Origin: an uncultured Desulfobacterales bacterium
GTDB lineage: Bacteria; Desulfobacterota; Desulfobacteria; Desulfobacterales; CAJINA01
Direction: 5' to 3'
DNA length: 64,000 nucleotides
Assembly: GCA_964636125.1 (NCBI GenBank)
Contig: CAZWPX010000023.1
Location: forward strand, 1,010-65,009
The notes beneath the pieces were generated by a model. That model was not told the DNA's origin. It did no database searches and was given only the letters and a program-made list of their open reading frames with translations. This document shows positions 13,451 through 63,667 of this stretch, piece after piece (the stretch's first letter is position 1; every line of letters begins with the position of its first letter). Made by a program: the position numbers and the translations under genes.

Positions 13451-13481
13451 GTCAGGGTGCGAGCGCAGCTAGTTCCCTGAC
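13451..13481 (+). repeat. Conserved intergenic hairpin, copy 1
   Basis: GTCAGGG-tgcgagcgcagctagtt-CCCTGAC. A second copy with the same loop is at 39808..39838. Confidence 0.5.
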
Positions 13482-13543
13482 AGAAGCACACAAACGGGGA
13501 ACCGGGAACCTTGAACCCGGAACCCCGACTCACTAGAGGATCT

Positions 13544-27894: not shown

Positions 27895-27898
27895 GGTT

Positions 27899-29909: not shown

Positions 29910-29921
29910 ATCTATTTTCTC

Positions 29922-30113
29922 CTAGTAGTAAAAAAAAGTTACGCCCAGATGGAGCAGGCCAATTAAAACCATGAGAAAAAAAATCTTCTTGTAAAAGGGA
30001 TCGGCGGTATGTGAAAGCTCCATTTTTTCTTCAAATCCGGTGAGCCAGGCGGTAATTTCGCCATCGTCCTGCCGGTAGATGATTTCCTCGCCGTCTTTTT
30101 CAATGCCCGCCAT
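29922..30113 (-). CDS. Small protein with a C-terminal TM, inside the mrp-like operon
   Basis: 63 aa with an acidic N-terminus and IFFLMVLIGLLHLGVTFF. Tightly packed between operon genes (12-16 nt gaps). Confidence 0.45.
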   Translation of the reverse strand: MAGIEKDGEEIIYRQDDGEITAWLTGFEEKMELSHTADPFYKKIFFLMVLIGLLHLGVTFFYY

Positions 30114-30129
30114 TGCGATCCTCGCAAGC

Positions 30130-47189: not shown

Positions 47190-50100
47190 ATGAATAAATG
47201 GTTTAAAACCGCCTTGAAAACAATGTGTGATCGCCTGGGGGCAGGCACCCGCGGCGTACCTCGGCCGGTGCCGGGCAAAGCACCGAACGCCGGGCCCAGG
47301 CAGGATTCGTTTCCCGCAGGCATTCACTTCGAGGCCCTGGAACCCCGCCTGCTGCTTTCGGCCAGCGGAGACGGCATTGTTGCGGGTGTGGCCGTCCAGG
47401 CCGCTCCTTCGTCGGAACACGCTGCCATCGAAGCGGAAAACTTTCAATTCAACCAGTTGAACCAGTCGCTATCAACCAATCTCCTGCACACAACTGAAAT
47501 CAAGGAGAGCGGCCTTTCCCAGGGCAACTCAACTCCCCAAGGGAGCAATCCGGTATCCCATCCTGCGGACGCCACCACGACAAACAATGAAAACCAACTG
47601 GTTTCGTCAATACCAGCAGAATCGGTTGACATCCTGACCAGTATAGAAAGCCATGTTCTGGATACGGTCCTCGAACGTTCTGAACTGGTGGTAATCGATG
47701 GGGGCATCCAGGACACCGATACGCTGATAAATGATCTTTTGGCTGATCGAGACGATGGCCGTACGATAGAGGTTGTGATTATAGACCCGGAACAGGACGG
47801 TTTTGAACAGGTCAGTGACCTGCTGGCCACGCGCCAGGGGCTGGATGCGGTTCATTTTGTCTCCCACGGAACGGATCGCGGTGTAAAGCTGGGTGACACG
47901 TGGCTCTATCCGGGTAATCTCGATGACTATGCGGGTGATATCGCCGGATGGAAAGATTCCCTGGCGGCGGAAGCGGATCTACTTTTTTATGGTTGTGATC
48001 TGGCCGCCGGCGAAGAGGGACAGGCCTTGCTCGCTTCTTTGGGCGAATTGACCGGTGCGGACGTTACAGCAAGCGATGATGACACCGGCCATGCGCTTTT
48101 AGGTGGAGACTGGGATCTGGAATACCGGGCAGGCGATCTCGAGACCGCTGTTGCATTCAGCGCAGAACTACAGCATCACTGGGACGGACTCCTGGCGCCC
48201 CCGACTCTCGACCTGGATGTAAACAACAGCTCAGGCGCAGGAGGTAACGATTATCAGCTCACGTATACGGAGGGAGACGTTGCCACAGCCATTGCCGACA
48301 CCGACTCCGATGTTGCCGATGCAGATTCCACCACCTTTGATCACGTGACGCTTTCAGTGAGCGGGTTGTTGGATGGCAACGCCGAGGAGATGGTGCTCGA
48401 CGGAGACACTTTTGCGCTGTCCACGGCGGTTGCAGGTCAGAACACCAGTGGTCTTAAGTACACGGTAACGGTAACAGCGGTACCGGGATCGGGCACGGCC
48501 ACGATGACGATCACCAAGCAGGGCGGTGGGACGTTTACCGAGGTCGAGACCGAAGCACTGATCGAAGAGATTAAATATCGTCATGCCGACGACAACCCGA
48601 GCGACGGCAATCGTACGATCGACATGACGGTCAACGACGGATCAGTCGACAGTGCGGCGGCGCGAACGACGATCAACGTCGATCCGGTCAACGATGCACC
48701 GACCCTGACCGTGTTTTCAGCCCCAATCAAAACGTCGTCCCAAGATGAAACGGTGACCATCACGTTTGGCGACTTGACGACTCAGGGTGATGAGGCAGAT
48801 GTGGACGGCACAGTGGATGCGTTCATCGTCAAGGCGGTATCGAGCGGCACACTGTTGATCGGCGCATCTAAGGGCTCTGCCGCAGCTTGGGCGGCCGGAA
48901 CCAACGACACAATCAGTGGTTTGGATAAAGGGTTCTGGACGCCAGTCAGCGGTGCTACGGGTACGCTAAATGCCTTTACGATGGTTGTCGAGGACAACTC
49001 GGGAGCCGAATCGGCCACCCCAGTTCAGGCGCAGGTATCGGTCACGGCCAATAATGTACCGACGCTGACGGCGTTTGCGGCTCCCATCGATACGACGGCC
49101 GAGGACACACAGGTAGATATCACGTTTGCCGAACTGGTGGCCCAGGGTGATGAGGCGGATGTTGACGGTACGGTGGACGGTTTTGTGGTCAAGGCGGTCA
49201 CGAGTGGCACGCTTTTAATTGGTACGGATGCGGGTAGTGCAACGATCTGGGCAGCGGGCAGCAACGATACAATCGATGCGGCAAACAATGCTTACTGGAC
49301 GCCGGATAGTGATGCGAACGGGACGCTGAATGCTTTTACAGCTGTGGCCTTGGACAACTCGGGAGCCGAATCAGCCACTCCGGTTCAGGCGCAGATAACG
49401 GTGACCGCGGTCAACGATGCGCCCACCGCGACGAACCTGAGTGCCCCGGAGAGCTACACCGAGGACACGGCGCTCAATCTGACCGACATCGTGGTCACTG
49501 ATGTGGACAGTGCCACTGTCACGGTGACCCTGACCTTGTCGGATCCGGCGGCCGGCTCCCTGAGCACCGGCACATCCGGTGCGGTGACCTCGACCTTTGC
49601 GGCCGGGGTGTGGACCGCCTCGGGCGCCCTTGCCGATGTCAACACCCTGCTGGCCGGCGTCACCTTCACCCCGGCGATCAACTACAACAGCAACTTTAAC
49701 ATCGCCACCGGCGTCTCTGACGGTGCGGCCCCGGCGATCACCGGCACCAAGGTCATGACCGGCGCCGCGGTCAACGATGCGCCCACCGCGACGAACCTGA
49801 GTGCCCCGGAGAGCTACACCGAGGACACGGCGCTCAATCTGACCGACATCGTGGTCACTGATGTGGACAGTGCCACTGTCACGGTGACCCTGACCTTGTC
49901 GGATCCGGCGGCCGGCTCCCTGAGCACCGGCACATCCGGTGCGGTGACCTCGACCTTTGCGGCCGGGGTGTGGACCGCCTCGGGCGCCCTTGCCGATGTC
50001 AACACCCTGCTGGCCGGCGTCACCTTCACCCCGGCGATCAACTACAACAGCAACTTTAACATCGCCACCGGCGTCTCTGACGGTGCGGCCCCGGCGATCA

Positions 50101-51311
50101 CCGGCACCAAGGTCATGACCGGCGCCGCGGTCAACGATGCGCCCACCGCGACGAACCTGAGTGCCCCGGAGAGCTACACCGAGGACACGGCGCTCAATCT
50201 GACCGACATCGTGGTCACTGATGTGGACAGTGCCACTGTCACGGTGACCCTGACCTTGTCGGATCCGGCGGCCGGCTCCCTGAGCACCGGCACATCCGGT
50301 GCGGTGACCTCGACCTTTGCGGCCGGGGTGTGGACCGCCTCGGGCGCCCTTGCCGATGTCAACACCCTGCTGGCCGGCGTCACCTTCACCCCAACCGGGG
50401 GCTACGCCGGTGACTTTACCATCGCCACAAGTGCGAACGACGGCACGGCACCGGTGGTGACGGGAGTAAAAAATGTGTCCCTGGCAGCCGCTGCCGATCC
50501 AACGCCGCCGACGCTCCCTGCGGAAGACAATGATCCAGATCCGGTAACTCCGCCCGAGCCCGATCCAGAGACACCTGAAGACGAATCCGCACCCGCGGAC
50601 GTCGCAGAAGAGGCTCCTGCCGAGGCCGAAGCCGAGGCCTTGAATGAAGATGATTCGGGTGATACCGTAACGGCGGTTCCACCGACAGCCGCCGGAGCCG
50701 TGTCTTCACAACAGCGGCTTGCCTCGAACACGCTGCGTGGATTTATACAACGGTCCCTCCGGGGCCTGAGCCTTGAACAGGTTGCGGAGATCGACCTCAA
50801 AGAACTCCGGGAAATGACGGCCGAGACCCAACCGGCCTGGTCTGTTGCCCAGACCCGGGCAGCATCAATGACCTTTGGTACCCGGCTGACTGATTTGGGC
50901 ATTCGGACAGTTCTCGCATTCGATTTCCTGGAAAACTCGCTGGACGGGCTCCAACAAGAAGCAGAGGAAGAGATCGCGCTCAACCAGGTGGTTGCAAGTT
51001 CCGCCATTGCCGTAACGACAGGCCTGTCCGTGGGGTATGTGGCCTGGCTGCTGCGAAGCGGCGTGCTGCTCAGTTCTTTGCTGTCTTCCATGCCGGCCTG
51101 GCGGATTCTGGATCCGTTGCCTGTGCTTGCAGGAAAACTGGACGATTTCGAGGAGACGGACGAAGAATCCCTGGAGACCATCATCGAGCGGCCGTCGCCG
51201 CCTTCCGCCGATGACGACCCGAATGATGCATCTGCCTCTGTGGACGTTGCGGACGAAGTCGTGAAGGACGTGAAAGACGTGAAAGACGTGAAAGACGTGA
51301 AGGAAACGTAA
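47190..51311 (+). CDS. Giant repeat protein: N-terminal LEPR-XLL motif, DUF4347, cadherin-like repeats, acidic/Pro-rich linker, C-terminal TM segment
   Basis: FEALEPRLLLSA lies at 47328..47363. The DUF4347-like block runs ELVVIDGGIQD...DAVHFVSHG...LLFYGCDLAAGEEGQALL...GADVTASDDDTGH..LGGDWDLEY. Repeats of ~120 aa are bounded by VNDAPT. The segment SAIAVTTGLSVGYVAWLLRSGVLLSSLLSSMPAW is hydrophobic. No RTX GGxGxD array was seen. Confidence 0.9.
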   Translation: MNKWFKTALKTMCDRLGAGTRGVPRPVPGKAPNAGPRQDSFPAGIHFEALEPRLLLSASGDGIVAGVAVQAAPSSEHAAIEAENFQFNQLNQSLSTNLLHTTEIKESGLSQGNSTPQGSNPVSHPADATTTNNENQLVSSIPAESVDILTSIESHVLDTVLERSELVVIDGGIQDTDTLINDLLADRDDGRTIEVVIIDPEQDGFEQVSDLLATRQGLDAVHFVSHGTDRGVKLGDTWLYPGNLDDYAGDIAGWKDSLAAEADLLFYGCDLAAGEEGQALLASLGELTGADVTASDDDTGHALLGGDWDLEYRAGDLETAVAFSAELQHHWDGLLAPPTLDLDVNNSSGAGGNDYQLTYTEGDVATAIADTDSDVADADSTTFDHVTLSVSGLLDGNAEEMVLDGDTFALSTAVAGQNTSGLKYTVTVTAVPGSGTATMTITKQGGGTFTEVETEALIEEIKYRHADDNPSDGNRTIDMTVNDGSVDSAAARTTINVDPVNDAPTLTVFSAPIKTSSQDETVTITFGDLTTQGDEADVDGTVDAFIVKAVSSGTLLIGASKGSAAAWAAGTNDTISGLDKGFWTPVSGATGTLNAFTMVVEDNSGAESATPVQAQVSVTANNVPTLTAFAAPIDTTAEDTQVDITFAELVAQGDEADVDGTVDGFVVKAVTSGTLLIGTDAGSATIWAAGSNDTIDAANNAYWTPDSDANGTLNAFTAVALDNSGAESATPVQAQITVTAVNDAPTATNLSAPESYTEDTALNLTDIVVTDVDSATVTVTLTLSDPAAGSLSTGTSGAVTSTFAAGVWTASGALADVNTLLAGVTFTPAINYNSNFNIATGVSDGAAPAITGTKVMTGAAVNDAPTATNLSAPESYTEDTALNLTDIVVTDVDSATVTVTLTLSDPAAGSLSTGTSGAVTSTFAAGVWTASGALADVNTLLAGVTFTPAINYNSNFNIATGVSDGAAPAITGTKVMTGAAVNDAPTATNLSAPESYTEDTALNLTDIVVTDVDSATVTVTLTLSDPAAGSLSTGTSGAVTSTFAAGVWTASGALADVNTLLAGVTFTPTGGYAGDFTIATSANDGTAPVVTGVKNVSLAAAADPTPPTLPAEDNDPDPVTPPEPDPETPEDESAPADVAEEAPAEAEAEALNEDDSGDTVTAVPPTAAGAVSSQQRLASNTLRGFIQRSLRGLSLEQVAEIDLKELREMTAETQPAWSVAQTRAASMTFGTRLTDLGIRTVLAFDFLENSLDGLQQEAEEEIALNQVVASSAIAVTTGLSVGYVAWLLRSGVLLSSLLSSMPAWRILDPLPVLAGKLDDFEETDEESLETIIERPSPPSADDDPNDASASVDVADEVVKDVKDVKDVKDVKET
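49405..50392 (+). repeat. 2.7 copies of a 100%-identical 360-bp (120-aa) tandem repeat
   Basis: A line-by-line comparison shows 49405-49764 equals 49765-50124, which equals 50125-50392 (a partial third unit). Two older, diverged ~120-aa units precede it (~48700-49400). Confidence 0.95.
51261..51305 (+). repeat. 9-bp microsatellite (gtgaaRgac)x5 encoding (VKD)n at the C-terminus of the giant protein
   Basis: gtgaaggac gtgaaagac gtgaaagac gtgaaagac gtgaaggaa. Confidence 0.9.
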
Positions 51312-51314
51312 TTT

Positions 51315-54239
51315 ATGGGCAGGTTGAACGTCAAATTCCGCGTGGTTGCAGGCATGGTCGGTCTGGTGATCAGCCTCATCTTTCTGGCCCTCTATCTCGG
51401 CATCATTCCGGACCGGATCGGCGCGGTGCGAAAAGGACGCACGTCCCTCGCCGAAGCCCTTGCGGTACACAGCGCGGCCCTGGTGATGACGTCCGACTTT
51501 CAGCGCCTGAAAGCCGATCTGGACCTGATTTCAAAAAGAAATCCCGGTCTGCTTTCCCTTGCCCTGCGACGGGCAGATGGCCGCAGCACGATTTCGATCG
51601 GCGATCACGACGGCCAGTGGCAACCCATGCAAGAAAACTTCACGAAAGCCAACCAGATCCGGGTCCCCATATCCGACGGCAAGCAAAACTGGGGGCAGCT
51701 GGAGCTGCGATTCAATCCCCTGCAGGACCAGGGGCTCAAGGGAATCCTCCAAACACCATGGGTCCAGATCGGGCTGTTTCTCGGGATAGGATGCTTTGTC
51801 ACCTTTTACCTGTATCTGGGCAGAGTGCTTCGCCAACTGGACCCCTCCCAGGCCATCCCCGGCAGGGTGCGCGCCGCCCTGGACACCATGGCAGAGGGGT
51901 TGCTGGTCGTTGACCCGAAGGAACAAATCGTGCTCGCCAACAAGTCTTTCGCCGACCTGTTTCAAAGATCACCGGATAAGTTTCTGGGTCACAAGGCCGG
52001 AGAACTGCCCTGGATCGACACGGAGGGGAATAAGATAGAAAAAGAAAACCGCCCGTGGATCCAGGCCCTGAAACAGGGGAAGCTTCAGAGGAAGCAAATG
52101 TTGCGGCTGCAGGTTTCGGCCGACGAGTGGCGGACCTTCAATGTCAACTGCGCGCCGGTATTGGGTTCTGCGGAAAAGCCTGCGGGGGTACTCATCAGCT
52201 TCGACGATGTAACCCAACTCGAGAAAAAAGAGATCGAACTTCGCAAATCCAAGGAAGAAGCCGAAACCGCCAACCAGGCAAAGAGTGTGTTCCTGGCCAG
52301 CATGAGCCACGAAATCCGCACACCCATGAATTCCATTCTCGGTTTCACGGAGATCCTCAAGCGCGGCTATGCCCGCAGCAAAGAAGAGACCCGCCGACAC
52401 CTCAATACCATTCATTCCAGCGGGAAAAACCTGCTGGCCCTGATCAATGACATTCTGGACCTGTCGAAAGTAGAGTCCGGCCGCATTGAGGTGGAAAAAA
52501 CCTGGGACGAGCCCCATCGGATTGCCCAGGAGGTCCTTAAGACTCTGAAAGTCCAATCGGAAGAAAAAGGACTTTATCTCCGATTCAATGCGGAGAGTGC
52601 GCTGCCGCAAAAAATCGAGACCGATCCGACGCGTTTCCGGCAGATTATTTTCAACCTGGTGGGAAACGCCATCAAGTTTACGGAAACAGGCGGTGTGACG
52701 GTCGGCCTGCGCTTTAAGAACAACCGCAGAAGGCCCCTTTTGATTGTCGACATCACCGACACCGGCATTGGAATCCCGAGTGAGAAGATCGGCAGTATTT
52801 TCGACCCCTTCACCCAGGCGGATTCTTCGATAACCCGCCATTTCGGCGGAACGGGTCTCGGCCTTTCCATCAGTCGAAAATTTGCCCGACTGCTGGGCGG
52901 AGATATCCGGGTATCCAGTCAGCCGGATAAGGGCAGCCGGTTCAGGGTTATCCTGGCTACGGGAGACACGACCTCGATTCCTTTTCTCCAACCCGAGGAA
53001 GTGGCCTTGACCCTGGAAGAGACCGCTAAGGCCAAACCTGACCGGTGGCGGCTGAACAGGTCACGCGTCCTGGTGGTGGAAGACGGCGTTGAAACCCGTG
53101 AACTCCTCCGGCTGTTGCTCGTCCAGGCGGGAGTAGACGTGTACGAGGCGGAAAACGGGCTGGAGGGTGTCAGAAAAACCACCACCGAACCCTACGACGT
53201 CATCCTGATGGATGTAAACATGCCGGTCATGGACGGCTTTGCCGCGGCCGGGAAAATGCGGCAGAACGGGGTGAAGTCACCGATCATCGCCATGACCGCC
53301 AACGCCATGAAAGGCTCTGAGCAGGAATGTCTGGCGGCTGGATACTCGGGGTACCTCCCCAAGCCCATCGATATCGACAAGCTCATGCAGATGATGGCGG
53401 ATCTCGTGGGCGGAGACCAGGTCAAGGAAATGGACGATGCGTCCCCCGGCATTCCCGCAATGCCGGAAATCGCTTCCGCGGAAAAGCAAGCAGCACCGCC
53501 GCATCCCCTCGTATCCAGCCTGCCGATCAGCGACCCGGAGTTTCAGAAAATTATTATCCGATTTGAATCCCAGCTTCGCGACAAGCTGAAATCCGCGGTC
53601 CGGGCCCGGGAGCGGGGTGACCTTGCCGAATCGGCTGCCTTCGCTCACTGGCTCAAGGGAGCGGGTGGTACCGTGGGCTTCGCTGAATTTACCGAACCGG
53701 CCCGACAACTTGAACAGCTGGTAAATGAAGGGGCCGATGTATCTGAAATGACCGCGGCATGGAAAGCTATTCGCCGGCTGGCCATCCGCCTTGCTGACAC
53801 TATAGCTGACCTGGCGATATCTGCGGCTACCGGGACCGGAGCAGCAGCATCGCCGACTCCGTCGGAAGCCCCTTCCTCTGCCCACACCGCAGGCACCGCT
53901 GTGACACCTCTGGTTTCCCGCTACGCAGAGCTCCCGGAATTTCAGCCGATTATTCACCATTTCATCGAAACGCTCGATGAAAACCTGTCAAAAATGGAAC
54001 TGGCCTATGTGCAGGAAGATTGGAAACAGCTGGAATCCCTGTCGCACTGGTTGAAAGGGTCAGGTGGTACGGTGGGTTTTGATGCCTTCACAAAACCTGC
54101 AGCGGAGCTCGAAAAATTCGCCAAGGCGCAACAGGCGGACCAGGCCGGAGGAATGCTGGATAAGCTAAAGCGGCTGAAAAACGCAGCCCTGCACCCGGAT
54201 GCAGGTGGACACGGCACAGAGCCGGCATCAATCCTTTAA
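51315..54239 (+). CDS. Hybrid sensor kinase: TM-periplasmic loop-TM, PAS, HisKA, HATPase, REC, 2x HPt
   Basis: It starts 3 nt after the giant gene's stop. The H-box is LASMSHEIRTPMNSILGF, the G-boxes are DTGIGI and GTGLGLSISRKF, and the receiver is VLVVEDG...ILMDVNMPVMDG. Two HPt motifs are present: HWLKGAGGTVGF and HWLKGSGGTVGF. Confidence 0.9.
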   Translation: MGRLNVKFRVVAGMVGLVISLIFLALYLGIIPDRIGAVRKGRTSLAEALAVHSAALVMTSDFQRLKADLDLISKRNPGLLSLALRRADGRSTISIGDHDGQWQPMQENFTKANQIRVPISDGKQNWGQLELRFNPLQDQGLKGILQTPWVQIGLFLGIGCFVTFYLYLGRVLRQLDPSQAIPGRVRAALDTMAEGLLVVDPKEQIVLANKSFADLFQRSPDKFLGHKAGELPWIDTEGNKIEKENRPWIQALKQGKLQRKQMLRLQVSADEWRTFNVNCAPVLGSAEKPAGVLISFDDVTQLEKKEIELRKSKEEAETANQAKSVFLASMSHEIRTPMNSILGFTEILKRGYARSKEETRRHLNTIHSSGKNLLALINDILDLSKVESGRIEVEKTWDEPHRIAQEVLKTLKVQSEEKGLYLRFNAESALPQKIETDPTRFRQIIFNLVGNAIKFTETGGVTVGLRFKNNRRRPLLIVDITDTGIGIPSEKIGSIFDPFTQADSSITRHFGGTGLGLSISRKFARLLGGDIRVSSQPDKGSRFRVILATGDTTSIPFLQPEEVALTLEETAKAKPDRWRLNRSRVLVVEDGVETRELLRLLLVQAGVDVYEAENGLEGVRKTTTEPYDVILMDVNMPVMDGFAAAGKMRQNGVKSPIIAMTANAMKGSEQECLAAGYSGYLPKPIDIDKLMQMMADLVGGDQVKEMDDASPGIPAMPEIASAEKQAAPPHPLVSSLPISDPEFQKIIIRFESQLRDKLKSAVRARERGDLAESAAFAHWLKGAGGTVGFAEFTEPARQLEQLVNEGADVSEMTAAWKAIRRLAIRLADTIADLAISAATGTGAAASPTPSEAPSSAHTAGTAVTPLVSRYAELPEFQPIIHHFIETLDENLSKMELAYVQEDWKQLESLSHWLKGSGGTVGFDAFTKPAAELEKFAKAQQADQAGGMLDKLKRLKNAALHPDAGGHGTEPASIL

Positions 54240-54634: not shown

Positions 54635-55489
54635 ATGATTGCCAAATTCAAATCAAGCCTGTTTCTGATAGCTGTCATCGGGCTCCTGGCTGTCAGCCCC
54701 GCCGTCTCCCATTCGCTGGAAGTTCAGGCGGTAACCATTCCCAGCGCGGACGTCACGCTTTCCTTTGTGGTTTCCGGAAAAATCGCAGAAATTCTCGTCA
54801 AAGAAGGCGACAGTGTGAAAAAGGGTGCCCTGCTGGCTGCGTTGCACGATGATCCTGAACGAATTCAAACCGAGCAATTGAAGGTTCAGGCCGCGGACAT
54901 GACCCGTATCCTGTCGGCAAAAGCGGAACTGGCCCAGAAAATAGTGGACCTGGAAAAGCTCGATGCGGCCAGGAAAAAGGGTGCGGTCAGCGACTGGGAA
55001 GTCGCACATATGAAGCTGAGCGTTCGCATGGCGAAGCTGGCGCTCCAGGCGGCGACAATCGAACATGAGCAATCTCAGCGCCAGTACTCCCAGGCAGTCC
55101 AACAGCTCGAGCGCATGCGCATCGTGTCCCCGATTCCGGGGCGCGTGGAAAAGGTCTCCATTGAGGCCGGAGAAGGGATTGAAAAACTCGGACCGGTGGT
55201 TCAACTGGTCAGGACCGATCCGCTCTGGCTCGATGTCCCGGTCCCCCTGCCCCAGGCAAAGCAGCTGGCCATGGGGCAACGGGCCGCGGTCCGGTTTCCG
55301 GGTGATCCAACCGGTAAATCAACGGATGGTCGGATTGTCTACATCTCGTCCGTCGCAGATGCGGCCAGTGACACCCTGCGGGTCCGTATCGAAGTGGGCA
55401 ATCCTTCCGATCGTCCGGCAGGAGAGCGGGTGACCGTTGGCTTTCCGCTAATTCAAACCGGCAAGGTTGGGGACACTTCCCAAAATTGA
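54635..55489 (+). CDS. HlyD/RND-type periplasmic adaptor (membrane fusion protein 1)
   Basis: The N-terminal signal/anchor is SLFLIAVIGLLAV. It has a lipoyl-like half (VSGKIAEILVKEGDSVKKGALLAAL), a coiled-coil hairpin, IVSPIPGRVEKVSIEAGE and a beta-barrel tail. Confidence 0.85.
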   Translation: MIAKFKSSLFLIAVIGLLAVSPAVSHSLEVQAVTIPSADVTLSFVVSGKIAEILVKEGDSVKKGALLAALHDDPERIQTEQLKVQAADMTRILSAKAELAQKIVDLEKLDAARKKGAVSDWEVAHMKLSVRMAKLALQAATIEHEQSQRQYSQAVQQLERMRIVSPIPGRVEKVSIEAGEGIEKLGPVVQLVRTDPLWLDVPVPLPQAKQLAMGQRAAVRFPGDPTGKSTDGRIVYISSVADAASDTLRVRIEVGNPSDRPAGERVTVGFPLIQTGKVGDTSQN

Positions 55490-55494
55490 AGACG

Positions 55495-57312
55495 ATGAAC
55501 GAACTGCAGCAAACCGAAGGGCCTTTCACCAGGGTTCTCACTCGGGTACTTGCCAGGCAGTGCCGACAGGTGCGGGCGGCCGGCGGCGCAATGCTGCAAC
55601 CCGTCGAAGAGAAACGCCTGCTCCTCCTTGCGGCTTTTCCGCAATCAGACACCCAAAACGGGCTTCCCAAATGGCTCTCCCCTGCCCTGAACACCTGCCT
55701 GGAGGTCCTGTCCAGCGGAAAGGCGGCGATTGTGCCGGAATCCCCGCAGCAGGGGGCCGGCGGACAGACCGGGAGCCGGATCCTTGTCATTCCGATTCAA
55801 AAAAAGAACAATGTCCGGGCAGTGGCTGCATTTCTCGTCCCCGAGCAAAACCCCCGGAGGCTGGCGGTTATAGAAAAGAGGCTGGCCACCACCTCCTTTC
55901 TACTGAACCACTGCGAACTGCAACTGACCCTGGAAAAACACCGGAAGGCGATCGATCGCCTCTCCCTCGCGCTGGGTGTCATTTCAGTGTGCAACCAATC
56001 CAGCCACTTCACGAGCACCGCCATGGCCTTGTGCAACGAGCTTGCCGAAAAATTAAGATGCCACCGTGTCAGCCTCGGCGTTCTGGAAGGCCGCTACGTC
56101 CGCGTCCGCGCCATGAGCCGGACCGACACGTTTCACCGGGAGATGAAGCTGACCCAGGACATCGAGGCAGCCATGGAAGAGTGTCTGGACCAGGACCTGG
56201 AAATCATTCGCCCGGCGGCCGCAGATGCCGTCTACGTCAGCCGCGCAGCCGGGCAGCTTTCCCAGCGGCATGGGCCATCCGCCGTGCTCTGCGTGCCGGT
56301 CCGGATAAACGGCGGCGTGGCCGCCGTCATCACCCTGGAGCGATCTTCGGAGCGGCCGTTTACAAGCCTGGAAGAGATCGAGGCCGTCAGGCTGGCTTGC
56401 GACCTGTGCGCCCCGCGGCTGATGGACCTGCGGGAGAATGCGCGGTGGTTCGGCGCCCGCATGGCCGCAGCGGTTCGAAAAAAAGCAGGGACGATTTTTG
56501 GACCGCAACACACGGGATTGAAGCTGGGGGCCGTCCTCATTTTTCTCATCGCAGTGTTTCTTGTGTTCGCCAGGGGGGAGTACCGCGTCGGCGCCCCGTT
56601 TATCTTCGAGGCCTCGATTCAGCAAGCCGTCGTGGCCCCGTTTGACTCCTATATCAAAAACGTTCACGTGGATCCCAGCGACGCGGTAATCGCTGATCAA
56701 ACCCTATTGGGCGAGCTGGAGACTTCCGATTTGAGACTCGAACAGGCCGCGCTCAAGGCACAGCAGCAGGGGCATCGGAAACAACGTGCAGCCTCGATGC
56801 GCGACGGAAAAACGGCCGAAGCCCAGATGGCCGAGGCTCAGATTGACAAGCTGGCGGCTGAAATCCGCCTCATCGAAGGCCATATCAAACAGGCCGCACT
56901 GGTGGCGCCGATTTCCGGGCGACTCGTTTCGGAAGATCTCAAACGGCGTCTGGGAGCGCCGGTGGAAGCGGGCGACATTCTCTTCGAAATCGCCCGCATC
57001 GAATTACTGAGGGCCGAGCTTTACGTGCCGGAAGATTCGATTGCGCTGGTGAATATCGGTCAGGCCGGTGAATTGGCCGCCGTCGGCCATCCGGATCGGA
57101 AAATTCGGTTTGTGGTGGAACGCATCACGCCCCTCGCCGAGGTAGTCAACCAGGTCAATTCGTTCCGGGTGCGGGCCCGTTTGCACGACAGGCCGAAATG
57201 GATGCGGCCGGGCATGGAAGGCCTTGCCCGGATCGATGTAGGGAAAAAACGCTATGTGTGGATCTGGACCCATCGGTTGACCGACTGGCTCAGGATGAAG
57301 CTTTGGCTTTAA
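55495..57312 (+). CDS. GAF-GAF-TM-HlyD fusion (membrane fusion protein 2 with a cytoplasmic sensor module)
   Basis: About 330 cytoplasmic aa carry two GAF-like units (…ALCNELAEKLRCHRVSLGVLEG…VLCVPVRINGGVAAVITLER…). One TM follows (LGAVLIFLIAVFLVFA), then a HlyD coiled coil and VAPISGRLVSEDL. A TTG at 55486 overlapping the upstream stop is an alternative start. Confidence 0.85.
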   Translation: MNELQQTEGPFTRVLTRVLARQCRQVRAAGGAMLQPVEEKRLLLLAAFPQSDTQNGLPKWLSPALNTCLEVLSSGKAAIVPESPQQGAGGQTGSRILVIPIQKKNNVRAVAAFLVPEQNPRRLAVIEKRLATTSFLLNHCELQLTLEKHRKAIDRLSLALGVISVCNQSSHFTSTAMALCNELAEKLRCHRVSLGVLEGRYVRVRAMSRTDTFHREMKLTQDIEAAMEECLDQDLEIIRPAAADAVYVSRAAGQLSQRHGPSAVLCVPVRINGGVAAVITLERSSERPFTSLEEIEAVRLACDLCAPRLMDLRENARWFGARMAAAVRKKAGTIFGPQHTGLKLGAVLIFLIAVFLVFARGEYRVGAPFIFEASIQQAVVAPFDSYIKNVHVDPSDAVIADQTLLGELETSDLRLEQAALKAQQQGHRKQRAASMRDGKTAEAQMAEAQIDKLAAEIRLIEGHIKQAALVAPISGRLVSEDLKRRLGAPVEAGDILFEIARIELLRAELYVPEDSIALVNIGQAGELAAVGHPDRKIRFVVERITPLAEVVNQVNSFRVRARLHDRPKWMRPGMEGLARIDVGKKRYVWIWTHRLTDWLRMKLWL

Positions 57313-57382: not shown

Positions 57383-59566
57383 TTGACGGTGACCGCAACA
57401 CGCCCGACATTTATCGAATCCTGGTACCGCGTGGCCAATTTGTGCCCGAAGCTGCTCCCGGCGGTGAACGTGCACCGCCAGCATTTCCGGGGCGTCCAGT
57501 GGTACGTTCTCCAGAACCCGGCCAACAATGAATATTTCCGTCTCAGCCACGGGGCCTATCACTTCGCCGCGATGCTCGACGGTCGCCTCACCGTGGACCG
57601 GGTATGGCGGACGTGCATGGACGCATTCGGCGACGAGGCGCCGACCCAGGGCGAAGTCGTCGATCTGCTTACCAGGCTCTATGCGGCCAACCTGCTCCAG
57701 GGCGATGTGGCCCCGGACGTGGAAGCGCTGTTTCAGCGGCATCAGAAGCGCGCGTGGCGGGAAATTAAAGGATTTTTTCGCAATTTCCTTTTCATCCGGA
57801 TTCCCCTGTGGGATCCGGATCGATTCCTGGAAAGATGGGCCCCTGTTTTCGGAAAATTCTTCACGGTCCATGGCCTTTTCCTCTGGGTCGGTATCATGTT
57901 AGCCGGGTTGTGGGCGGTCGGCGGACACTTCGGAGACCTGACCCGGCAGGCCGCGGGTGTTTTGAACCCGAAAAACCTGCCCCTGCTGTACGCCGCGCTC
58001 GTCATCGTCAAAGTGTTTCACGAAATGGCCCATGCGTTTGCCTGCAAACAGTTCGGGATGCGGGCGGGAACCGGGGGCGAGGTGCACCGGATGGGGGTGA
58101 CGTTCCTCGTATTCGCACCGCTGCCCTACGTAGAGGCGTCCAGTGCCTGGGCCCTTAGGGACAAATGGCAGCGGATCGTCGTCGGTGCCGCCGGCATGCT
58201 GGTGGAACTGGCGATCGCTGCGATTGCAGGCATTCTCTGGGTCCGGACCGCCGAAGGGGCCACCGTACATGCCATCGCCTACAACGTGATGTTTGTCGCC
58301 AGTGTGTCCACGCTGCTCTTCAACGGAAACCCGTTCCTGCGATACGATGCCTATTACATCCTGCTGGATCTCCTCGAAATTCCCAACCTCGATTCCCGGT
58401 CCAAAGCCTACCTTGCCTTTCTGGCCAAACGTAATCTGTGGAACCTCAAACAGGTCCATGATCCCAGCCACACGCCGGGAGAACGGGGGTGGCTCGTATT
58501 TTACGCCCTGACCGCCATGGGTATCCGTGTGGCCGTGGCAATAGCGATTGTGCTGTTTCTCGGCAGCCAATTTTTTCTGATCGGGGCGGTGGTTGCGGTC
58601 TTCATGGCTGCAACCTGGATTTTCCTTCCCCTGGGAAACTTGCTGCGCTATCTGGCCATCAGCCCCGAGCTTGCCCGGATCAGACCCCGGGCGGTTGTCA
58701 CCAGCGCAGCCGCAGCCGCGGTCCTTCTCGGGGCCGTCGGCCTCGTTCCCATGCCGGAGCGCTTTCGCATCGAGGGTGTGGTGGAGCCGATCCGCTACGC
58801 GGTCATCCACATGAAAGCCGACGGATTCGTCGACGGGTTCCTCGATTCCGGGAAAAAGACCGGTCCGAACGGCCTCCGCCTGCTTACCGCGGTCTCCCCG
58901 ATTCTGGAAACCCGGCGCGATCAGCTGCATGCCGAACGCCGCCGGCTCCAGGTGCGGCGAAAACACGCCCAGGCCCGTGAGACGGCGGCGGTACAGATTA
59001 TCGCAGAAAAAATCGCCGCCCTGGAAGAAAAAATCGCACGCAACCGCCGGGAGATGGCGGATCTGAACCTGCAAGCACCCATTCAGGGCACCTGGGTGGC
59101 CCCGAACATTGACCGGCTCCGGGGGGTGTACCTGAAGCGGGGTCGACATGTCGGGGTGGTCGCAGATCTGGACGCCCTGAGAATCCGAGCCGTTGCCGGC
59201 CAGACAGTGGCGGCAGAGCTTATTCGGGATGCCGGATCCGCTGTCGAGATCAGAGTCAAAGGCAACCCGAGTGCGACCTACGACGGCCGAATCGAGACGA
59301 TCATTCCGGCGGGACAGGAACGGCTGCCGTCTGCCGCCCTCGGCTATGCAGCGGGGGGCTCGACCCAAACGGCCCTGGATGACCCGGAGGGCCGGCAGGC
59401 CTCCGAACCGTTTTTTGAAATCCTGGTGGTTCCGGATATTCCCGAAGGAAGGCGGCTGATGCCGGGGCAGAGCACGGTGCTGCGGTTTGACACCGCCGCG
59501 AAACCACTGCTGGTACAGGCATGGAAAACCATTTTGCAACTTTTTCAGAGGAGGTTTAAAGCCTAA
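57383..59566 (+). CDS. PqqD/RRE-like domain + M50 (site-2-protease-like) membrane metalloprotease + HlyD adaptor, single polypeptide
   Basis: The N-terminus (WYVLQNPANNEYFRLSHGAYHFAAMLDGRLTVDRVWRTCMDAFGDEAPTQGEVVDLLTRLYAANLL) fits the PqqD-like peptide-binding pattern. HEMAH lies at 58019..58033 within a polytopic region. The C-terminal coiled coil plus LQAPIQGTWVAP is HlyD-like. The start is TTG 57383 or GTG 57389. Confidence 0.85.
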   Translation: MTVTATRPTFIESWYRVANLCPKLLPAVNVHRQHFRGVQWYVLQNPANNEYFRLSHGAYHFAAMLDGRLTVDRVWRTCMDAFGDEAPTQGEVVDLLTRLYAANLLQGDVAPDVEALFQRHQKRAWREIKGFFRNFLFIRIPLWDPDRFLERWAPVFGKFFTVHGLFLWVGIMLAGLWAVGGHFGDLTRQAAGVLNPKNLPLLYAALVIVKVFHEMAHAFACKQFGMRAGTGGEVHRMGVTFLVFAPLPYVEASSAWALRDKWQRIVVGAAGMLVELAIAAIAGILWVRTAEGATVHAIAYNVMFVASVSTLLFNGNPFLRYDAYYILLDLLEIPNLDSRSKAYLAFLAKRNLWNLKQVHDPSHTPGERGWLVFYALTAMGIRVAVAIAIVLFLGSQFFLIGAVVAVFMAATWIFLPLGNLLRYLAISPELARIRPRAVVTSAAAAAVLLGAVGLVPMPERFRIEGVVEPIRYAVIHMKADGFVDGFLDSGKKTGPNGLRLLTAVSPILETRRDQLHAERRRLQVRRKHAQARETAAVQIIAEKIAALEEKIARNRREMADLNLQAPIQGTWVAPNIDRLRGVYLKRGRHVGVVADLDALRIRAVAGQTVAAELIRDAGSAVEIRVKGNPSATYDGRIETIIPAGQERLPSAALGYAAGGSTQTALDDPEGRQASEPFFEILVVPDIPEGRRLMPGQSTVLRFDTAAKPLLVQAWKTILQLFQRRFKA

Positions 59567-59567: not shown

Positions 59568-61556
59568 GTGATCCAGGTACCGAGCATAAGCTGGCGGATG
59601 CTTTCTCAGGAGCCCTCCCGGGTGGAAATTCCCCGAGGCCTGGACAGAGCGTGGCATCGGGCCGCCGGTGCCGCCGGGAGTGTTTCCCTTCGAACAAAAA
59701 GATTTATCCGCCGGGCGGAGGGTATCGTTTCCATGGACAAGCTCTTTGCGCACCTATCCGACAAAGAGTTGAGTAAAATAATCCCGCCCCTGCGGGATCG
59801 ATTTCGCCTTGGCCGGGACACAGCCGAAGATCAAAACCGGGCCTTTGCCATCGTCCGGGAAGTCGCCGGGAGAACGATCGGCATGCGCCCCTTTACGGTC
59901 CAAGTGGCCTGCGGGCTGGCAATGGAATCCGGCTGCATTGCGGAAATGGCCACCGGTGAGGGGAAAACCCTGGCCGCAACCATGCCCGCCGTTCTGGCGG
60001 GCTGGCGCAACCGGGGATGCCACGTGGTGACGGCCAATGAATACCTGGCCGCGCGGGATGCCGGTTGGATGGCGCCTGTTTACCGGTTCTGCGGATTGAC
60101 GGTCGGATGGGTGGCAAACACCATGGGCCCGGAGCAACGGCGGCGGGCCTACGACGCTCACATCACTTACTGCACAAGCAAGGAGATCGCAGCCGATTTC
60201 CTGCGCGACCGTCTTACCCTGGGCCCCATCCGGGGACTTTCTGCAGCGCTTCTGGCGAAACTGGCCGGACGCGGCCCCGACCGGATCAACGGCCTGGTTC
60301 AAAGCAGCCTGGGGTGTGCCATTATAGACGAAGCCGACGCGGTGCTCGTGGACGAAGCGGTCACACCGCTGATCATTTCAGGTTCCGGGCAGAACCCGGA
60401 CCATGCACAAGCCATTGCCGAAGCCGCTCGTCTGGCCGCGAAGCTTGCGCCGGAAAAGGACTACCGGGTAGATCGGCGATATCACGAAATCACCCTGACC
60501 GCAGCCGGAGAGGCCCGGATGGCCGGGATGGCCGAATCCCTTGGCGGCCTTTGGAGAATTTCCCGGCACCGTGAAGAACTCGTCGTTCAAGCGATCACTG
60601 CCCGGGAATTTTTTGTTCGGGACAAGCAGTATGTCGTCGACAATCAGACGGTGGTCATCATCGATGAATTCTCAGGGCGGCTCATGCCCGACAGGACCTG
60701 GCGTGACGGTCTCCACCAGGCGATCGAGGCAAAAGAGGATCTCGAGATTCATCTGCCCAGGGAAACCCTGGCCCGGATCAGCTTCCAGCGTTTTTTTCGT
60801 CTTTACGGGAAGCTGTCCGGAATGACGGGAACCGCGGCAGAGATTCGAAATGAATTCTGGCAAATTTACCGTCTTCCGGTGGTCGTCATCCCGCCCCGGC
60901 GCGCCTGTCAACGGTCCCTGCGACCGGATCGCATATTTTCAAATAAAGATGCGAAATGGAGGGCGGTCATCGATGAAATCCGCAGCGCGCACGAAATCGG
61001 GCGGCCGGTCCTGGTGGGGACCCGCAGCGTGGCAGCCAGCGAGTCTCTTGGCCGGCAGTTAACCGTCGAAAAGCTGGATCACGAGGTCCTCAATGCCGTC
61101 CGGCATGACGCCGAGGCGAGGATCATCGCCGACGCCGGCCGAAGCGGGCGCATTACCGTCGCCACGAACATGGCCGGGAGAGGAACCGATATCCGCCTGG
61201 GCCCCAATGTAGCCGAGCTGGGGGGACTGCATGTGGTCGCCACCGAGCTTCACGAAACCCGCCGGATCGACCGGCAATTATACGGCCGGTGCGCCCGCCA
61301 GGGCGATCCCGGCAGCGCCCGGGCTTTTGTGAGCCTGGATGACGAATTGCTGCAGCAGCACGCACCTCCGGTCTGGAAAAAAACGGGGTCCGGCACTGGA
61401 GACGGAGGCCGGGAAATCACTTCTGTCTTTTCCCGCCGACGGATCGAACGCGCTCAGCGCCGTGCTGAGCGGGCCGCTTTTCACCGGCGCAGGGAAGTGC
61501 TTCACACAGACCACTGGCTTGACGAACACCTGGGATTTGCGCTTAAAGAAATCTAG
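59568..61556 (+). CDS. SecA-like ATPase, C-terminally truncated paralogue (NBD1-PPXD-NBD2 + first scaffold helix only)
   Basis: It is collinear with E. coli SecA. EMATGEGKTLAA is the Walker A motif (59955-69). Other matching motifs are VVTANEYLAARD, IIDEADAVLVDEAVTPLIISG, RTWRDGLHQAIEAKE, FFRLYGKLSGMTGTA, ATNMAGRGTDI, GGLHVVATELHETRRIDRQLYGRCARQGDPGS. It ends ~40 aa into the scaffold helix (about 650-660 aa, against ~900 for SecA). Start is GTG 59568 or ATG 59598; the track start at 59487 overlaps the previous gene. Confidence 0.9.
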   Translation: MIQVPSISWRMLSQEPSRVEIPRGLDRAWHRAAGAAGSVSLRTKRFIRRAEGIVSMDKLFAHLSDKELSKIIPPLRDRFRLGRDTAEDQNRAFAIVREVAGRTIGMRPFTVQVACGLAMESGCIAEMATGEGKTLAATMPAVLAGWRNRGCHVVTANEYLAARDAGWMAPVYRFCGLTVGWVANTMGPEQRRRAYDAHITYCTSKEIAADFLRDRLTLGPIRGLSAALLAKLAGRGPDRINGLVQSSLGCAIIDEADAVLVDEAVTPLIISGSGQNPDHAQAIAEAARLAAKLAPEKDYRVDRRYHEITLTAAGEARMAGMAESLGGLWRISRHREELVVQAITAREFFVRDKQYVVDNQTVVIIDEFSGRLMPDRTWRDGLHQAIEAKEDLEIHLPRETLARISFQRFFRLYGKLSGMTGTAAEIRNEFWQIYRLPVVVIPPRRACQRSLRPDRIFSNKDAKWRAVIDEIRSAHEIGRPVLVGTRSVAASESLGRQLTVEKLDHEVLNAVRHDAEARIIADAGRSGRITVATNMAGRGTDIRLGPNVAELGGLHVVATELHETRRIDRQLYGRCARQGDPGSARAFVSLDDELLQQHAPPVWKKTGSGTGDGGREITSVFSRRRIERAQRRAERAAFHRRREVLHTDHWLDEHLGFALKEI

Positions 61557-61600: not shown

Positions 61601-63667
61601 ATGATTAAACGCTATGGTATATGGGTTGCCGCTGTTCTTTCGATTTTCATCACCATTTCCGTTGCCGGGGGGGAGACCTGCCAACCGATCCTGAACATCC
61701 TGAAAAGCCAGGAATGGAAGCATCGCGACACCAGGGGGGAGATCCATCTCGGCAAGGTCGCGACCCTGCTATATCCCGCCTATACGGTCGCAGCAACCGA
61801 CCGTTACCGGCCGCTCCTCGAGCAGTTGTCCGCGGCCCTGAAAACGCCGGTCAGAAAAGAATACCGGGTCGTTTTGAAGGGATATACAGATTCCCTCGGT
61901 TCACTGGTGGTCAACCAGCGCATCTCCCTGGAACGCGCCCAGGACCTGAAAAAATTGCTGACATCGGATCCATCCATGGCCCTCGACGCCAAAAGAATCC
62001 AAGTAGAGGGCCTTGGGGAGGCCGACCCGGTGGCCTCCAACCAGACGCTTGAGGGGCGGAACCAAAATCGCCGTGTTGAAATTCACATTTACGGCAATGT
62101 GGGAGAGGACGTACGAACGGTCGCTACGGCACCGCCCGCCCCCGTCCCTGTAGCCATGCAAAAGGGAAAACCGGTTATCGCAGGTGCTTTATCGGATAAA
62201 TCTACGTTGCCGTTGTCAATACCGGGGGCACAGACACCACCGGGGCCGGAGACCGTTCGCCTGTCCCTTTTCGATGCCATCCGCCATGGATTGGAAAAAA
62301 ACCTGGAGATTCGGGTGGTCGCCTTTACCCCGCAGCAGGCGCAAGAGGGCATTGCGGATGCGGAATCAGTCTTTGATCCCGAAATTTTCACGGAGGGAAC
62401 CTTCCAGCGGGATCCGAATCTGCAATCGAGCGTCACCCGGGTCGTCATGGAAGATGACAGCCTCCTTCAGACGGGAATTCGAAAGCCCCTTGGCACCGGC
62501 GGCAGCGTGTCCGGCGCCCTGGCAATGAATTACGGGAATCTGATCAACGCCGAGTTCGATCGAACCTACCGGTACACCTTCGCCCCGACCTTTGAAATCA
62601 GGCAACCGCTGCTGAAAAATATCGGCGGCCGGGAAGAAAAGGCCGCCATCAAGATCGCCAACCATCAAATGGGCATTTCCAAAGAGGCGTTTCGTCGGAA
62701 GGTAATCGACATTGCCACCCGGATCTCCAGAGCCTACTGGCGGCTCTACCTGCACCGGGACTATGTGTTGATCGACCGGCAGAATTTCGAAATGGCCGAG
62801 GAGGTCTACCGCCGGGAAACCGTCCGGGTCAAAGAAGGCCTTTCGCAACAGCTTGATGTCGCGCGGGCCCGAAGCAATGCCGAAAGCCGGCGGGGAAACC
62901 TGATTAAATCGAAAGAGCGGTTAAAGGTGGGCACGGACCAGTTAAAGCTCTTGATCAACTGGTCGAATCTGAACATCGACTCGCAGGTAAATATCTTACC
63001 CATCGATGAACCGAGCGCAGAGCCCCTTGATGTGAGCGAAGAAGAAGTCGTTGAAAAAGCGTTCCAGCATCGCCCGGAACTGTTGCAGGCCAAACAGCGG
63101 GTGAGTATCAGTAAGGTCGAAGAAGACCTTTCGCAGCATCTGAAACTGCCGACCCTGGATGTATTCGGGCGGTATGCCGTCAGCGGGTACGGCAGGGAGT
63201 TCTCGGACGCGGTTGACGATACGTCCGTCAACGATGAAGATGCCTGGGCCGCCGGCCTGAACTTTGAATATCCGATCGGCAATCGATCGGTAGTGGCCAA
63301 GGCCCGCATGAAAACGCTCGCGCGCCGTCAGTCGGAAGAACAGGTCGCCCGCCTGCGAAACCAGATCAAACAGGAAATCAAGGAGGTGCTCTCTGCGATT
63401 GTTTATGCCAAAGGTAGAATCGAGTCCACTCAAATAGCGATGGAATCCGCCCGGAGTGTGGTCGAAGGTGAATTCGTACGGTTCGAAATCGGTCAGACGA
63501 CCAATGTGGAACTTCTGCGGGCGCAGGACTCGCTGGCCGCCACCAGCCGCAGTTTCATACAAGCGATTGTGGATTACAATATTGCACTGGCCGAACTGAA
63601 AAGGGTCAAGGGCGAGCTGCACGAGGGGTTGTCGATCGATGAACTCGAAAAGCAAGCCGGAAACTGA
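61601..63667 (+). CDS. OmpA-like peptidoglycan-binding domain fused to a TolC-family outer-membrane channel
   Basis: It has a signal peptide. The OmpA_C pattern is VVLKGYTDSLGSLVVNQRISLERAQDL...GLGEADPVASNQTLEGRNQNRRVEIHIY. Two OEP repeats follow (LSLFDAIRHGLEKNLEI... and ...IVDYNIALAELKRVKGEL). Confidence 0.9.
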   Translation: MIKRYGIWVAAVLSIFITISVAGGETCQPILNILKSQEWKHRDTRGEIHLGKVATLLYPAYTVAATDRYRPLLEQLSAALKTPVRKEYRVVLKGYTDSLGSLVVNQRISLERAQDLKKLLTSDPSMALDAKRIQVEGLGEADPVASNQTLEGRNQNRRVEIHIYGNVGEDVRTVATAPPAPVPVAMQKGKPVIAGALSDKSTLPLSIPGAQTPPGPETVRLSLFDAIRHGLEKNLEIRVVAFTPQQAQEGIADAESVFDPEIFTEGTFQRDPNLQSSVTRVVMEDDSLLQTGIRKPLGTGGSVSGALAMNYGNLINAEFDRTYRYTFAPTFEIRQPLLKNIGGREEKAAIKIANHQMGISKEAFRRKVIDIATRISRAYWRLYLHRDYVLIDRQNFEMAEEVYRRETVRVKEGLSQQLDVARARSNAESRRGNLIKSKERLKVGTDQLKLLINWSNLNIDSQVNILPIDEPSAEPLDVSEEEVVEKAFQHRPELLQAKQRVSISKVEEDLSQHLKLPTLDVFGRYAVSGYGREFSDAVDDTSVNDEDAWAAGLNFEYPIGNRSVVAKARMKTLARRQSEEQVARLRNQIKQEIKEVLSAIVYAKGRIESTQIAMESARSVVEGEFVRFEIGQTTNVELLRAQDSLAATSRSFIQAIVDYNIALAELKRVKGELHEGLSIDELEKQAGN

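Follow-up and report, generated by a model that had tools for sequence, protein, structure and literature searches.

Gene and domain structure of the short SecA paralogue

A gene for a short SecA paralogue, of the kind called "secondary SecA_DEAD domain protein", was located at 59568–61556 (+) of a 64,000-nucleotide stretch from an uncultured Desulfobacterales bacterium (GenBank assembly GCA_964636125.1, contig CAZWPX010000023.1, positions 1,010 to 65,009). The whole stretch is referred to as the window, and all coordinates without a locus number follow its own numbering. The gene encoded 662 amino acids plus a stop, began with GTG at 59568 and ended with TAG at 61554–61556. The TAA codon of the upstream M50-HlyD fusion gene occupied 59564–59566, 1 nt before this GTG. 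The assigned start agreed with the family alignment, in which the N-terminal consensus M..VPSTTWRML was conserved from residue 1.

The domain content of the short SecA was determined with Pfam. SecA_DEAD matched residues 43–431 (E 3e-94), SecA_PP_bind, the preprotein cross-linking domain (PPXD), matched residues 281–387 (60408–60728, +; E 2e-26), and P-loop_SecA matched from residue 448 (E 1e-56), which placed NBD2, the second RecA-like motor domain, at residues ~448–600 (60909–61367, +). No match to SecA_SW or SEC-C was obtained by Pfam, even at E 0.01. The catalytic motifs, namely Walker A (GEGKT), the DEAD box, motif V (TNMAGRGTD) and motif VI (RQGDPG), were invariant across the family of short SecAs. 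Both the retention of the motor and the PPXD and this very pattern of Pfam matches had been claimed in an earlier reading of the window made from its letters only (the sequence-only reading), and both were found as claimed. The protein scored below the cut-off of every NCBIfam SecA and SecA2 model. The best scores came from the canonical SecA equivalog models NF009538 (621 vs 814 bits) and TIGR00963 (612 vs 800), and the SecA2 models TIGR04397 (552 vs 1085), TIGR03714 (484 vs 930), TIGR04221 (473 vs 725) and NF012136 (417 vs 1100) scored lower still.

In canonical SecA, the helical wing domain, the two-helix finger that inserts into SecY and the C-terminal linker with its zinc finger come after the first long scaffold helix. 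In the E. coli protein we take the scaffold helix to span ~621–672, the wing ~673–755 and the IRA1/two-helix finger ~756–834, with the C-terminal tail extending to 901. The alignment with the short SecA covered residues 15–607 of B. subtilis SecA (41% identity) and residues 11–649 of E. coli SecA (38% identity; the sequence used had the correct length, 901 residues). The scaffold-helix region paired with E. coli residues 621–650 and contained the peptide RRRIERAQRRAERAAFHRRREVLHTDHWLDEHLGF, residues 623–657 of the short SecA. In the AlphaFold2 (AF2) model (predicted local distance difference test, pLDDT, 73; predicted template-modelling score, pTM, 0.68), a single helix at residues 620–647 was followed by a short tail of low confidence. 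The segment from this lone scaffold helix through the family tail (648–658) to the end of the protein lies at 61425–61553 (+), as delimited by the AF2 secondary structure, the alignment and the conservation of the tail.

Judged by these alignments and the model, the short SecA terminates where the first long scaffold helix ends, as the sequence-only reading had it, and it has neither a wing domain nor a two-helix finger nor a C-terminal zinc finger. The further claim that the protein lacks the parts that engage SecYEG stood only in part. The wing, the finger and the C-terminal tail are indeed missing, but SecY is also touched, in the SecA–SecYEG complex, by three parts that were kept: the PPXD, the long scaffold helix and NBD2. 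The superposition on known structures that the same reading had called for was carried out, and the model resembled SecA structures at a template-modelling (TM) score of 0.70–0.76. The best matches were substrate-engaged or peptide-bound forms of SecA: 6ITC (0.76), 5EUL (0.74) and 3JV2 (0.74).

Conservation and specific features of the short SecA family

The short C-terminus was shared by the relatives examined. Nearly all of the best 120 database homologues (58–100% identity) were 652–662 residues long, with a mode of 662, and all 54 complete orthologous open reading frames (ORFs) from independent metagenome loci terminated at the equivalent of residue 661–662. In the window, the stretch between the stop codon and the ATG at 61601 that opens the next gene was 44 nt long and contained a ribosome-binding site. 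A frameshift or assembly error near 61.5 kb, which the sequence-only reading had named as fatal to its claim, or a decaying secA pseudogene was ruled out with near certainty by the 44-nt gap, the lengths of hundreds of homologues (652–662 residues), the shared end, the invariant catalytic motifs and the conserved motifs at both ends of the protein.

The phylogenetic placement that had been proposed together with that claim was also performed. The short SecAs formed one clade against 59 canonical SecAs, with a neighbour-joining bootstrap of 50/50. Mean identity was 63% among the short SecAs and 43% between the short and the canonical proteins, and 145 positions were at least 90% conserved and identical between the two groups.

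Several features were specific to the family. In place of the canonical SecA N-terminus, the conserved motif WRML.Q.PS..LPRGLD.AW was found at residues 9–29, within an N-terminal extension that comprised residues 1–41 according to the family alignment (59568–59690, +) and for which the monomer model had a pLDDT below 50. Before the DEAD box, about 20 residues were inserted (219–240), and the C-terminal tail TD.WLDE.LGFA (648–658) was conserved. Fixed residue switches were concentrated at the stem of the PPXD and its return strand (R220V, G346D, S350R, E368P, S374R, T376S, N379R and T396E in E. coli numbering). This PPXD-stem region is the peptide-binding site in 3JV2. A changed substrate contact at the PPXD stem is possible on the basis of these substitutions.

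An origin of the tail WLDEHLGFA as a relic of the two-helix finger was considered as well, the tail having been placed by MAFFT against EHL 777–779 and GYAQKD 793–798 of E. coli SecA. It was rejected as a chance match: against a profile built from the C-terminal third of canonical SecAs, the tail scored no better than shuffled sequences (530/2000), and the His residue was variable. Further, several short SecAs carry the NCBI name "prepilin peptidase" (e.g. P0033, P0064, P0093), which looks like an annotation error spreading through the family.

Genes of the cassette

The short SecA gene was preceded by three genes for periplasmic adaptors of the membrane fusion protein (MFP) type and followed by a gene for an outer-membrane factor. 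The M50-HlyD gene 1 nt upstream and the TolC-family gene 44 nt downstream were the neighbours that the sequence-only reading had named.

The first gene, MFP1 (54635–55489, +), encodes a 284-residue periplasmic adaptor of the HlyD/RND_mfp type with an N-terminal hydrophobic segment, a membrane anchor or signal; it was matched by TIGR01730 (122 bits, cut-off 94.9) and by Pfam HlyD_D23 and HlyD_3. The second, GAF-MFP (55486–57312, +), encodes 608 residues, with a GAF domain in the cytoplasm, a single transmembrane helix (344–362) and a HlyD-type adaptor in the periplasm, as assigned from the Pfam matches GAF/GAF_2 and HlyD_3/HlyD_D23 and from a transmembrane scan. It was kept 5' of the third gene in nearly all related loci. 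This third gene, M50-MFP (57383–59566, +), encodes a 727-residue fusion of an RRE(PqqD)-like domain, an M50-type intramembrane metalloprotease and an MFP, laid out as a cytoplasmic domain (~10–107), a multi-helix membrane domain and a periplasmic adaptor (460–727). The gene 3' of the short SecA (61601–63667, +) encodes an OmpA-OEP outer-membrane factor of the TolC family, 688 residues long, with two OEP repeats and, at the N-terminus, a peptidoglycan-binding domain of the OmpA type (Pfam OEP E 7e-43, OmpA E 5e-13; TIGR01844 E 1e-29).

The M50-MFP carried the zinc-site motifs HEMAH (213–217) and NGNPFLRYD (314–322, of the form NGNPxxxxD). Residues H213, E214, H217, N314, N316, P317 and D322 were invariant in 39 M50-MFP sequences, and no other stretches of the family were as conserved as these two motifs. 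The Pfam matches to PqqD (E 4e-4), Peptidase_M50 (E 5e-6) and HlyD_D23 (E 1e-6) were all slightly below cut-off, with Peptidase_M50 (PF02163) at 26.5 vs 27.2 and PqqD (PF05402) at 21.1 vs 23.4 bits; PF05402 is precomputed for most of the homologues. The NCBIfam model daptide_HExxH (NF041824) matched residues 23–413 at E 2e-41 (142 vs a cut-off of 300), and the YydH/LiaK leader-peptidase model NF058609 matched at E 4e-9 (36 vs 225). The M50-MFP is a homologue of the daptide and YydH-LiaK leader peptidases of ribosomally synthesised and post-translationally modified peptides (RiPPs), situated outside those subfamilies. A profile of its N-terminal domain gave PqqD chains as the top three PDB matches (E 0.004–0.7, the best being 3g2b at E 0.004), and the AF2 model (pLDDT 78) contained strands followed by helices at residues 22–101. 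The C-terminal part matched the adaptor fold of MexA/MacA/AcrA. At E ≤ 1e-30, the M50-MFP family numbered 3571 cluster representatives (50% identity), which came from many phyla, and the best 150 of them were nearly all 710–740 residues long.

Upstream of the cassette, between it and the candidate cargo gene described below, a hybrid histidine kinase was encoded (51315–54239, +) in which Pfam recognised PAS, HisKA, HATPase_c, receiver and two Hpt domains. Its orthologues occupied the same position in loci L001 (53% identity), L085 (78%) and L167 (84%). Two more hybrid histidine kinases, one of them bearing a GAF domain, were found just 5' of the cargo gene (41264–43054 and 45148–46707), and in L001 and L170 the cargo genes are separated from the cassette by GGDEF/EAL response regulators. 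The kinases and GGDEF/EAL regulators hint at a control of the system linked to cyclic-di-GMP.

Synteny across related loci

The gene order MFP1, GAF-MFP, M50-MFP, short SecA, OEP of the window recurred in related loci. The cassette was carried by Desulfosarcina alkanivorans (L001), a deltaproteobacterial metagenome-assembled genome (MAG; L086), Phycisphaerae (L003, L006 and L007), an MAG labelled Anaerolineales (L005) and about 80 metagenome contigs. When contigs were searched with a single short SecA protein, mostly canonical SecAs (~40% identity) were retrieved; only L005–L007 were members of the family, and the other loci of that search served as the control set.

The short SecA gene lay directly 3' of M50-MFP in 68 of the 73 related loci that had sequence downstream of the M50-HlyD gene. 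Because the two genes are separated by only 1 nt here and typically by 6–30 nt elsewhere, translational coupling of M50-MFP and the short SecA is suggested. No ABC, RND, MFS or SecY genes were found in the cassette of the window or in any related cassette examined, and no SecY-like, SecY2 or Asp/accessory Sec genes in the window cassette or the related loci. This gene context supports the proposal of the sequence-only reading that the motor was repurposed for another channel; that the channel is other than SecY is the inferred part of the proposal.

In 27 of 86 loci, a DUF3467 gene (106–159 residues; e.g. 5478–5864 of L003) was observed between MFP1 and GAF-MFP; it was absent from the window, and in L086 a DUF3467 gene lay 3' of the OEP gene (14294–14629). 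The idea that DUF3467 is a SecB-like chaperone was unsupported (hhalign probability of 0.1 against E. coli SecB), and no PDB match to DUF3467 was obtained by sequence or by profile.

Candidate cargo

A candidate cargo of the cassette was encoded at 47190–51311 (+). The predicted protein of 1373 residues had an LEPR-XLL motif, a DUF4347 domain, cadherin-like repeats and a hydrophobic hairpin near the C-terminus, after which comes an acidic tail. The LEPR-XLL motif FEALEPRLLLSA occupied residues 47–58 (NF012209, 23.5 bits, cut-off 17), DUF4347 was matched at 166–335 (Pfam, E 2e-52) and Cadherin_4/5 was also recognised by Pfam. The LEPR-XLL region did not contain a hydrophobic core of the Sec type. 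The C-terminal module consisted of two hydrophobic helices (~1262–1310) and the acidic tail, which finished in KDVKDVKDVKDVKET. The same module was present in DUF4347 proteins encoded beside cassettes in L085, L088/L089/L091, L167 (71%) and L169 (58% and 35%). A role as membrane anchor or as sorting element is possible for this module.

In the window, L085 and L087, giant DUF4347 genes were positioned 5' of the cassette, and in L088, L089 and L091 the C-terminal module was detected. On one 427-kb contig (L169/L170), two such genes lay 9–20 kb 5' of the cassette. Locus L167 had the same DUF4347-kinase arrangement as the window, with the 84% identical kinase, and probably also has a gene of the LEPR-XLL/DUF4347 type near its cassette. 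Further, ORFs with an N-terminal LE[PDS]RxLL adjoined divergent cassettes in L106, L116, L122 (two) and L152; NF012209 exceeded its cut-off of 17 for L106 (24.3) and L152 (25.6). In all of these loci, the distance from the LEPR-XLL/DUF4347 genes to the cassette ranged from direct adjacency to about 20 kb. Within 1.23 Mb around canonical secA genes, in control loci that came from other taxa, no comparable N-terminal motif was found.

The LEPR-XLL motif was borne by 66 of 91 DUF4347 homologues within about 90 residues from the start, typically as ΦEELEPRLLLSAD. The DUF4347 homologues (P0391–P0481) spanned Gamma-, Beta- and Deltaproteobacteria and Planctomycetes, and the motif, ΦE.LEPR.LLSAD, usually came after a short basic stretch. 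Because of this position near the N-terminus and the preceding basic residues, the motif appears to behave like a leader sequence.

Comparison with described systems

The family and its locus were described computationally by Kamneva, Poudel and Ward (PLoS One 2015; PMC4452313) under the name "secondary SecA_DEAD domain proteins", distinct from the canonical SecA of each genome and defined by the presence of SecA_DEAD with SecA_SW absent or fragmentary. The partners listed there were GAF-HlyD, a weakly recognised Peptidase_M50-HlyD, HlyD/biotin-lipoyl proteins and sometimes OEP. Those authors proposed that the SecA_DEAD protein takes over the ATPase role of an ABC transporter and that the pore might be built from the M50 membrane protein, and they called the biological role completely unknown. 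Their member table included Desulfococcus oleovorans, Desulfomicrobium baculatum, Methylobacterium, Planctomyces, Pirellula and Phycisphaera, and the relatives of the window protein came from the same taxa, Desulfobacterales and Phycisphaerae/Planctomycetes. The short SecA of the window matched that description, with SecA_DEAD and PPXD kept, SecA_SW lost and the same neighbours, and the gene order was that of META1p2402-2399 in M. extorquens (PMC4452313). It is a new member, unlisted in that study, which did not define the truncation point structurally. A literature search by family name found no experimental follow-up on the secondary SecA_DEAD family among the papers searched, and literature searches on LEPR-XLL, DUF4347 and DUF3467 yielded nothing of relevance.

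Hence, the family, the locus and the core hypothesis were already published in 2015, and the gene of the window is an additional member. Possibly new are the link to LEPR-XLL/DUF4347 cargo, the reading of the M50-MFP as a leader peptidase with an RRE, the DUF3467 gene, the motifs at both ends of the short SecA and the variants without SecA; PqqD/RRE, DUF3467, DUF4347, LEPR-XLL and a cargo are not mentioned in PMC4452313.

Like canonical SecA (TIGR00963/NF009538; 1M6N, 3DIN, 6ITC), the short protein has NBD1, PPXD, NBD2 and all ATPase motifs, at 38–43% identity and TM scores of 0.70–0.76. It differs by ending at about E. coli residue 662, without the wing, the IRA1/two-helix finger and the C-terminal linker/zinc finger, and by its N-terminus, the 20-residue insert before the DEAD box, the switches at the PPXD stem and the scores below model cut-offs. 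SecA-N68, a laboratory truncation of E. coli SecA, has a deregulated ATPase and is not known to translocate. Its structure (5K9T, rank 16 among the structure matches) contains nearly the same domains, the motor and the PPXD without the C-terminal third. Unlike this artificial fragment, the short SecA is natural and conserved, with terminal motifs of its own and dedicated partners.

With type I secretion (HlyB/HlyD/TolC and the C39-peptidase bacteriocin exporters), the cassette shares adaptors and a TolC-family channel, and on the model proposed below it would share with the C39-peptidase exporters a module that recognises and cleaves leaders and is joined to the inner-membrane component. It differs from type I secretion in having a SecA-derived ATPase and no ABC transporter, three different adaptors, a protease of the M50 instead of the C39 type, and a candidate signal, LEPR-XLL, that is N-terminal and not C-terminal as in the RTX type. 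To our knowledge, none of the recognised secretion-system types combines a SecA-derived motor with the absence of both SecYEG and an ABC transporter. SecA_DEAD/PPXD modules without scaffold or wing are also embedded in giant proteins of Omnitrophota and actinobacteria, for which an export of giant surface proteins was proposed (bioRxiv 10.1101/2023.11.21.568195). Unlike those modules, which lie inside a giant protein and beside type-II-like secretion genes, the short SecA is a stand-alone protein of 662 residues in an adaptor/TolC cassette.

Proposed function of the short SecA

Based on all of these data, we proposed, with a probability of roughly 0.55, that the short SecA serves as the ATPase dedicated to a type-I-like export machine that spans the envelope and lacks an ABC transporter. 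All mechanistic steps beyond the domain content and the synteny are inferred. The short SecA would dock on the cytoplasmic face of the M50-MFP/GAF-MFP assembly, with its family-specific N- and C-terminal motifs as the candidate docking surface. It would clamp the unfolded substrate and spend ATP on feeding it, N-terminus first, through a putative pore of oligomeric M50 membrane domains, from where the chain would traverse the adaptor tunnel and leave via the OEP channel. The substrates would be the giant cadherin-like surface proteins of the LEPR-XLL/DUF4347 type. Their leader, ΦE.LEPR.LLSAD, may be bound by the RRE-like domain and cut by the M50 active site, by analogy with bacteriocin ABC exporters that carry a C39 peptidase, and the C-terminal hydrophobic hairpin may hold the cargo on the cell. 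Deployment would be regulated through the GAF domain, the neighbouring histidine kinase and the GGDEF/EAL genes.

The more detailed form of this proposal is tentative, and we regard it as somewhat less probable than even odds. It takes LEPR-XLL as the leader of a distinct pathway, in which the RRE/M50 fusion would recognise and cleave the leader, the truncated SecA would drive the adhesin through the M50/adaptor/TolC conduit and the hairpin would anchor it.

Several observations weigh against the export model. Of the 36 loci flanked by 5 kb or more of sequence, only 7 had an adjoining LEPR-XLL/DUF4347 gene, and 4 of these 7 were close relatives; for this reason, and because the control regions were taken from other taxa, the cargo link is only suggestive. 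The PqqD and M50 matches of the M50-MFP fall under the curated cut-offs, and a protein-conducting pore formed by the M50 membrane domain is putative. The closely kin loci L088 (7433–11731), L089 and L091 keep an intact cassette without a SecA gene; their M50-MFP is ~70% identical to that of the window, and in L088 the OEP gene starts 94 nt past the M50-MFP stop. Locus L165 (12200–14744, M50-MFP 43% identical) likewise lacks the short SecA gene: at its position, ORFs of 340 and 406 residues without a Pfam match were found, after which the OEP and MFP genes follow. Because such cassettes exist, the motor may be dispensable or encoded elsewhere. In addition, the operon, except for the GAF gene, was barely expressed in exponential-phase Methylobacterium extorquens AM1 (Kamneva et al., PMC4452313).

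Two other explanations were weighed against the export machine. The short SecA might be a SecA2-like accessory motor that works on the housekeeping SecYEG for special substrates or for components of the cassette, the adaptors and the TolC-family channel then performing a separate periplasmic second step. It is consistent with such a role that the short SecA kept three parts that touch SecY in the canonical complex, namely PPXD, NBD2 and long scaffold helix, that the model superposed best on SecY-bound and peptide-bound SecA (6ITC, 5EUL and 3JV2) and that cassettes without a SecA gene exist. Kamneva et al. (PMC4452313) moreover placed the clade as a sister of actinobacterial SecA2. However, the wing, the two-helix finger and the C-terminal tail that binds lipid, SecB and ribosomes are missing from the short SecA, a different conserved motif stands in place of the canonical N-terminal membrane-binding helix, and the score was under the cut-off of every SecA2 model. 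Moreover, SecY2 and accessory Sec genes were found in no locus, the LEPR-XLL N-terminus is without a Sec-type hydrophobic core, and the gene is closely tied to M50-MFP, from which it lies 1–30 nt away in 68 of the 73 loci. Hence, an accessory motor on SecYEG was considered unlikely.

The cassette might also serve the maturation and export of RiPP- or bacteriocin-like small peptides, or regulated intramembrane proteolysis, with the short SecA as an unfoldase that feeds the M50 protease. We gave this explanation a similarly low chance, even though the N-terminal 413 residues of the M50-MFP share homology with leader peptidases of RiPPs (E 2e-41 and 4e-9), a PqqD/RRE-like domain is a usual element of RiPP pathways, the GAF sensor and the neighbouring kinases suggest signalling, and most loci are without an adjoining LEPR-XLL gene. 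What argues for the export of giant proteins instead is that neither a conserved small precursor gene nor a peptide-modifying enzyme was seen in the cassettes examined, that three periplasmic adaptors and a TolC-family channel point to export over both membranes, and that giant LEPR-XLL genes recur beside the cassette in several lineages. A SecA-type clamp is, in addition, made for long unfolded chains.

If the export model is true, the cassette represents an envelope-spanning exporter that runs on a SecA-derived motor and uses neither SecYEG nor an ABC transporter. The cargo class, the signal and the logic of leader recognition would then be new, the machine itself having been predicted in 2015. 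Since the M50-MFP family is very large, such a machine could be a major route for the deployment of giant adhesins in environmental bacteria. The candidate signal and cargo make the ten-year-old genomic prediction testable.

Other genes in the window

Apart from the cassette and its neighbours, the window contained a complete polyunsaturated fatty acid (polyketide-type) synthase cluster of the pfaA/pfaB/pfaC/pfaD type at 3978–22344, in which TIGR02813 scored 2896 bits and TIGR02816 and TIGR02814 exceeded their cut-offs. Four consecutive Proton_antipo_M genes, encoding membrane subunits similar to those of Mrp antiporters or complex I, were found on the opposite strand at 26389–33146 (−), and this stretch coincided with a strong AT skew (0.21–0.23).

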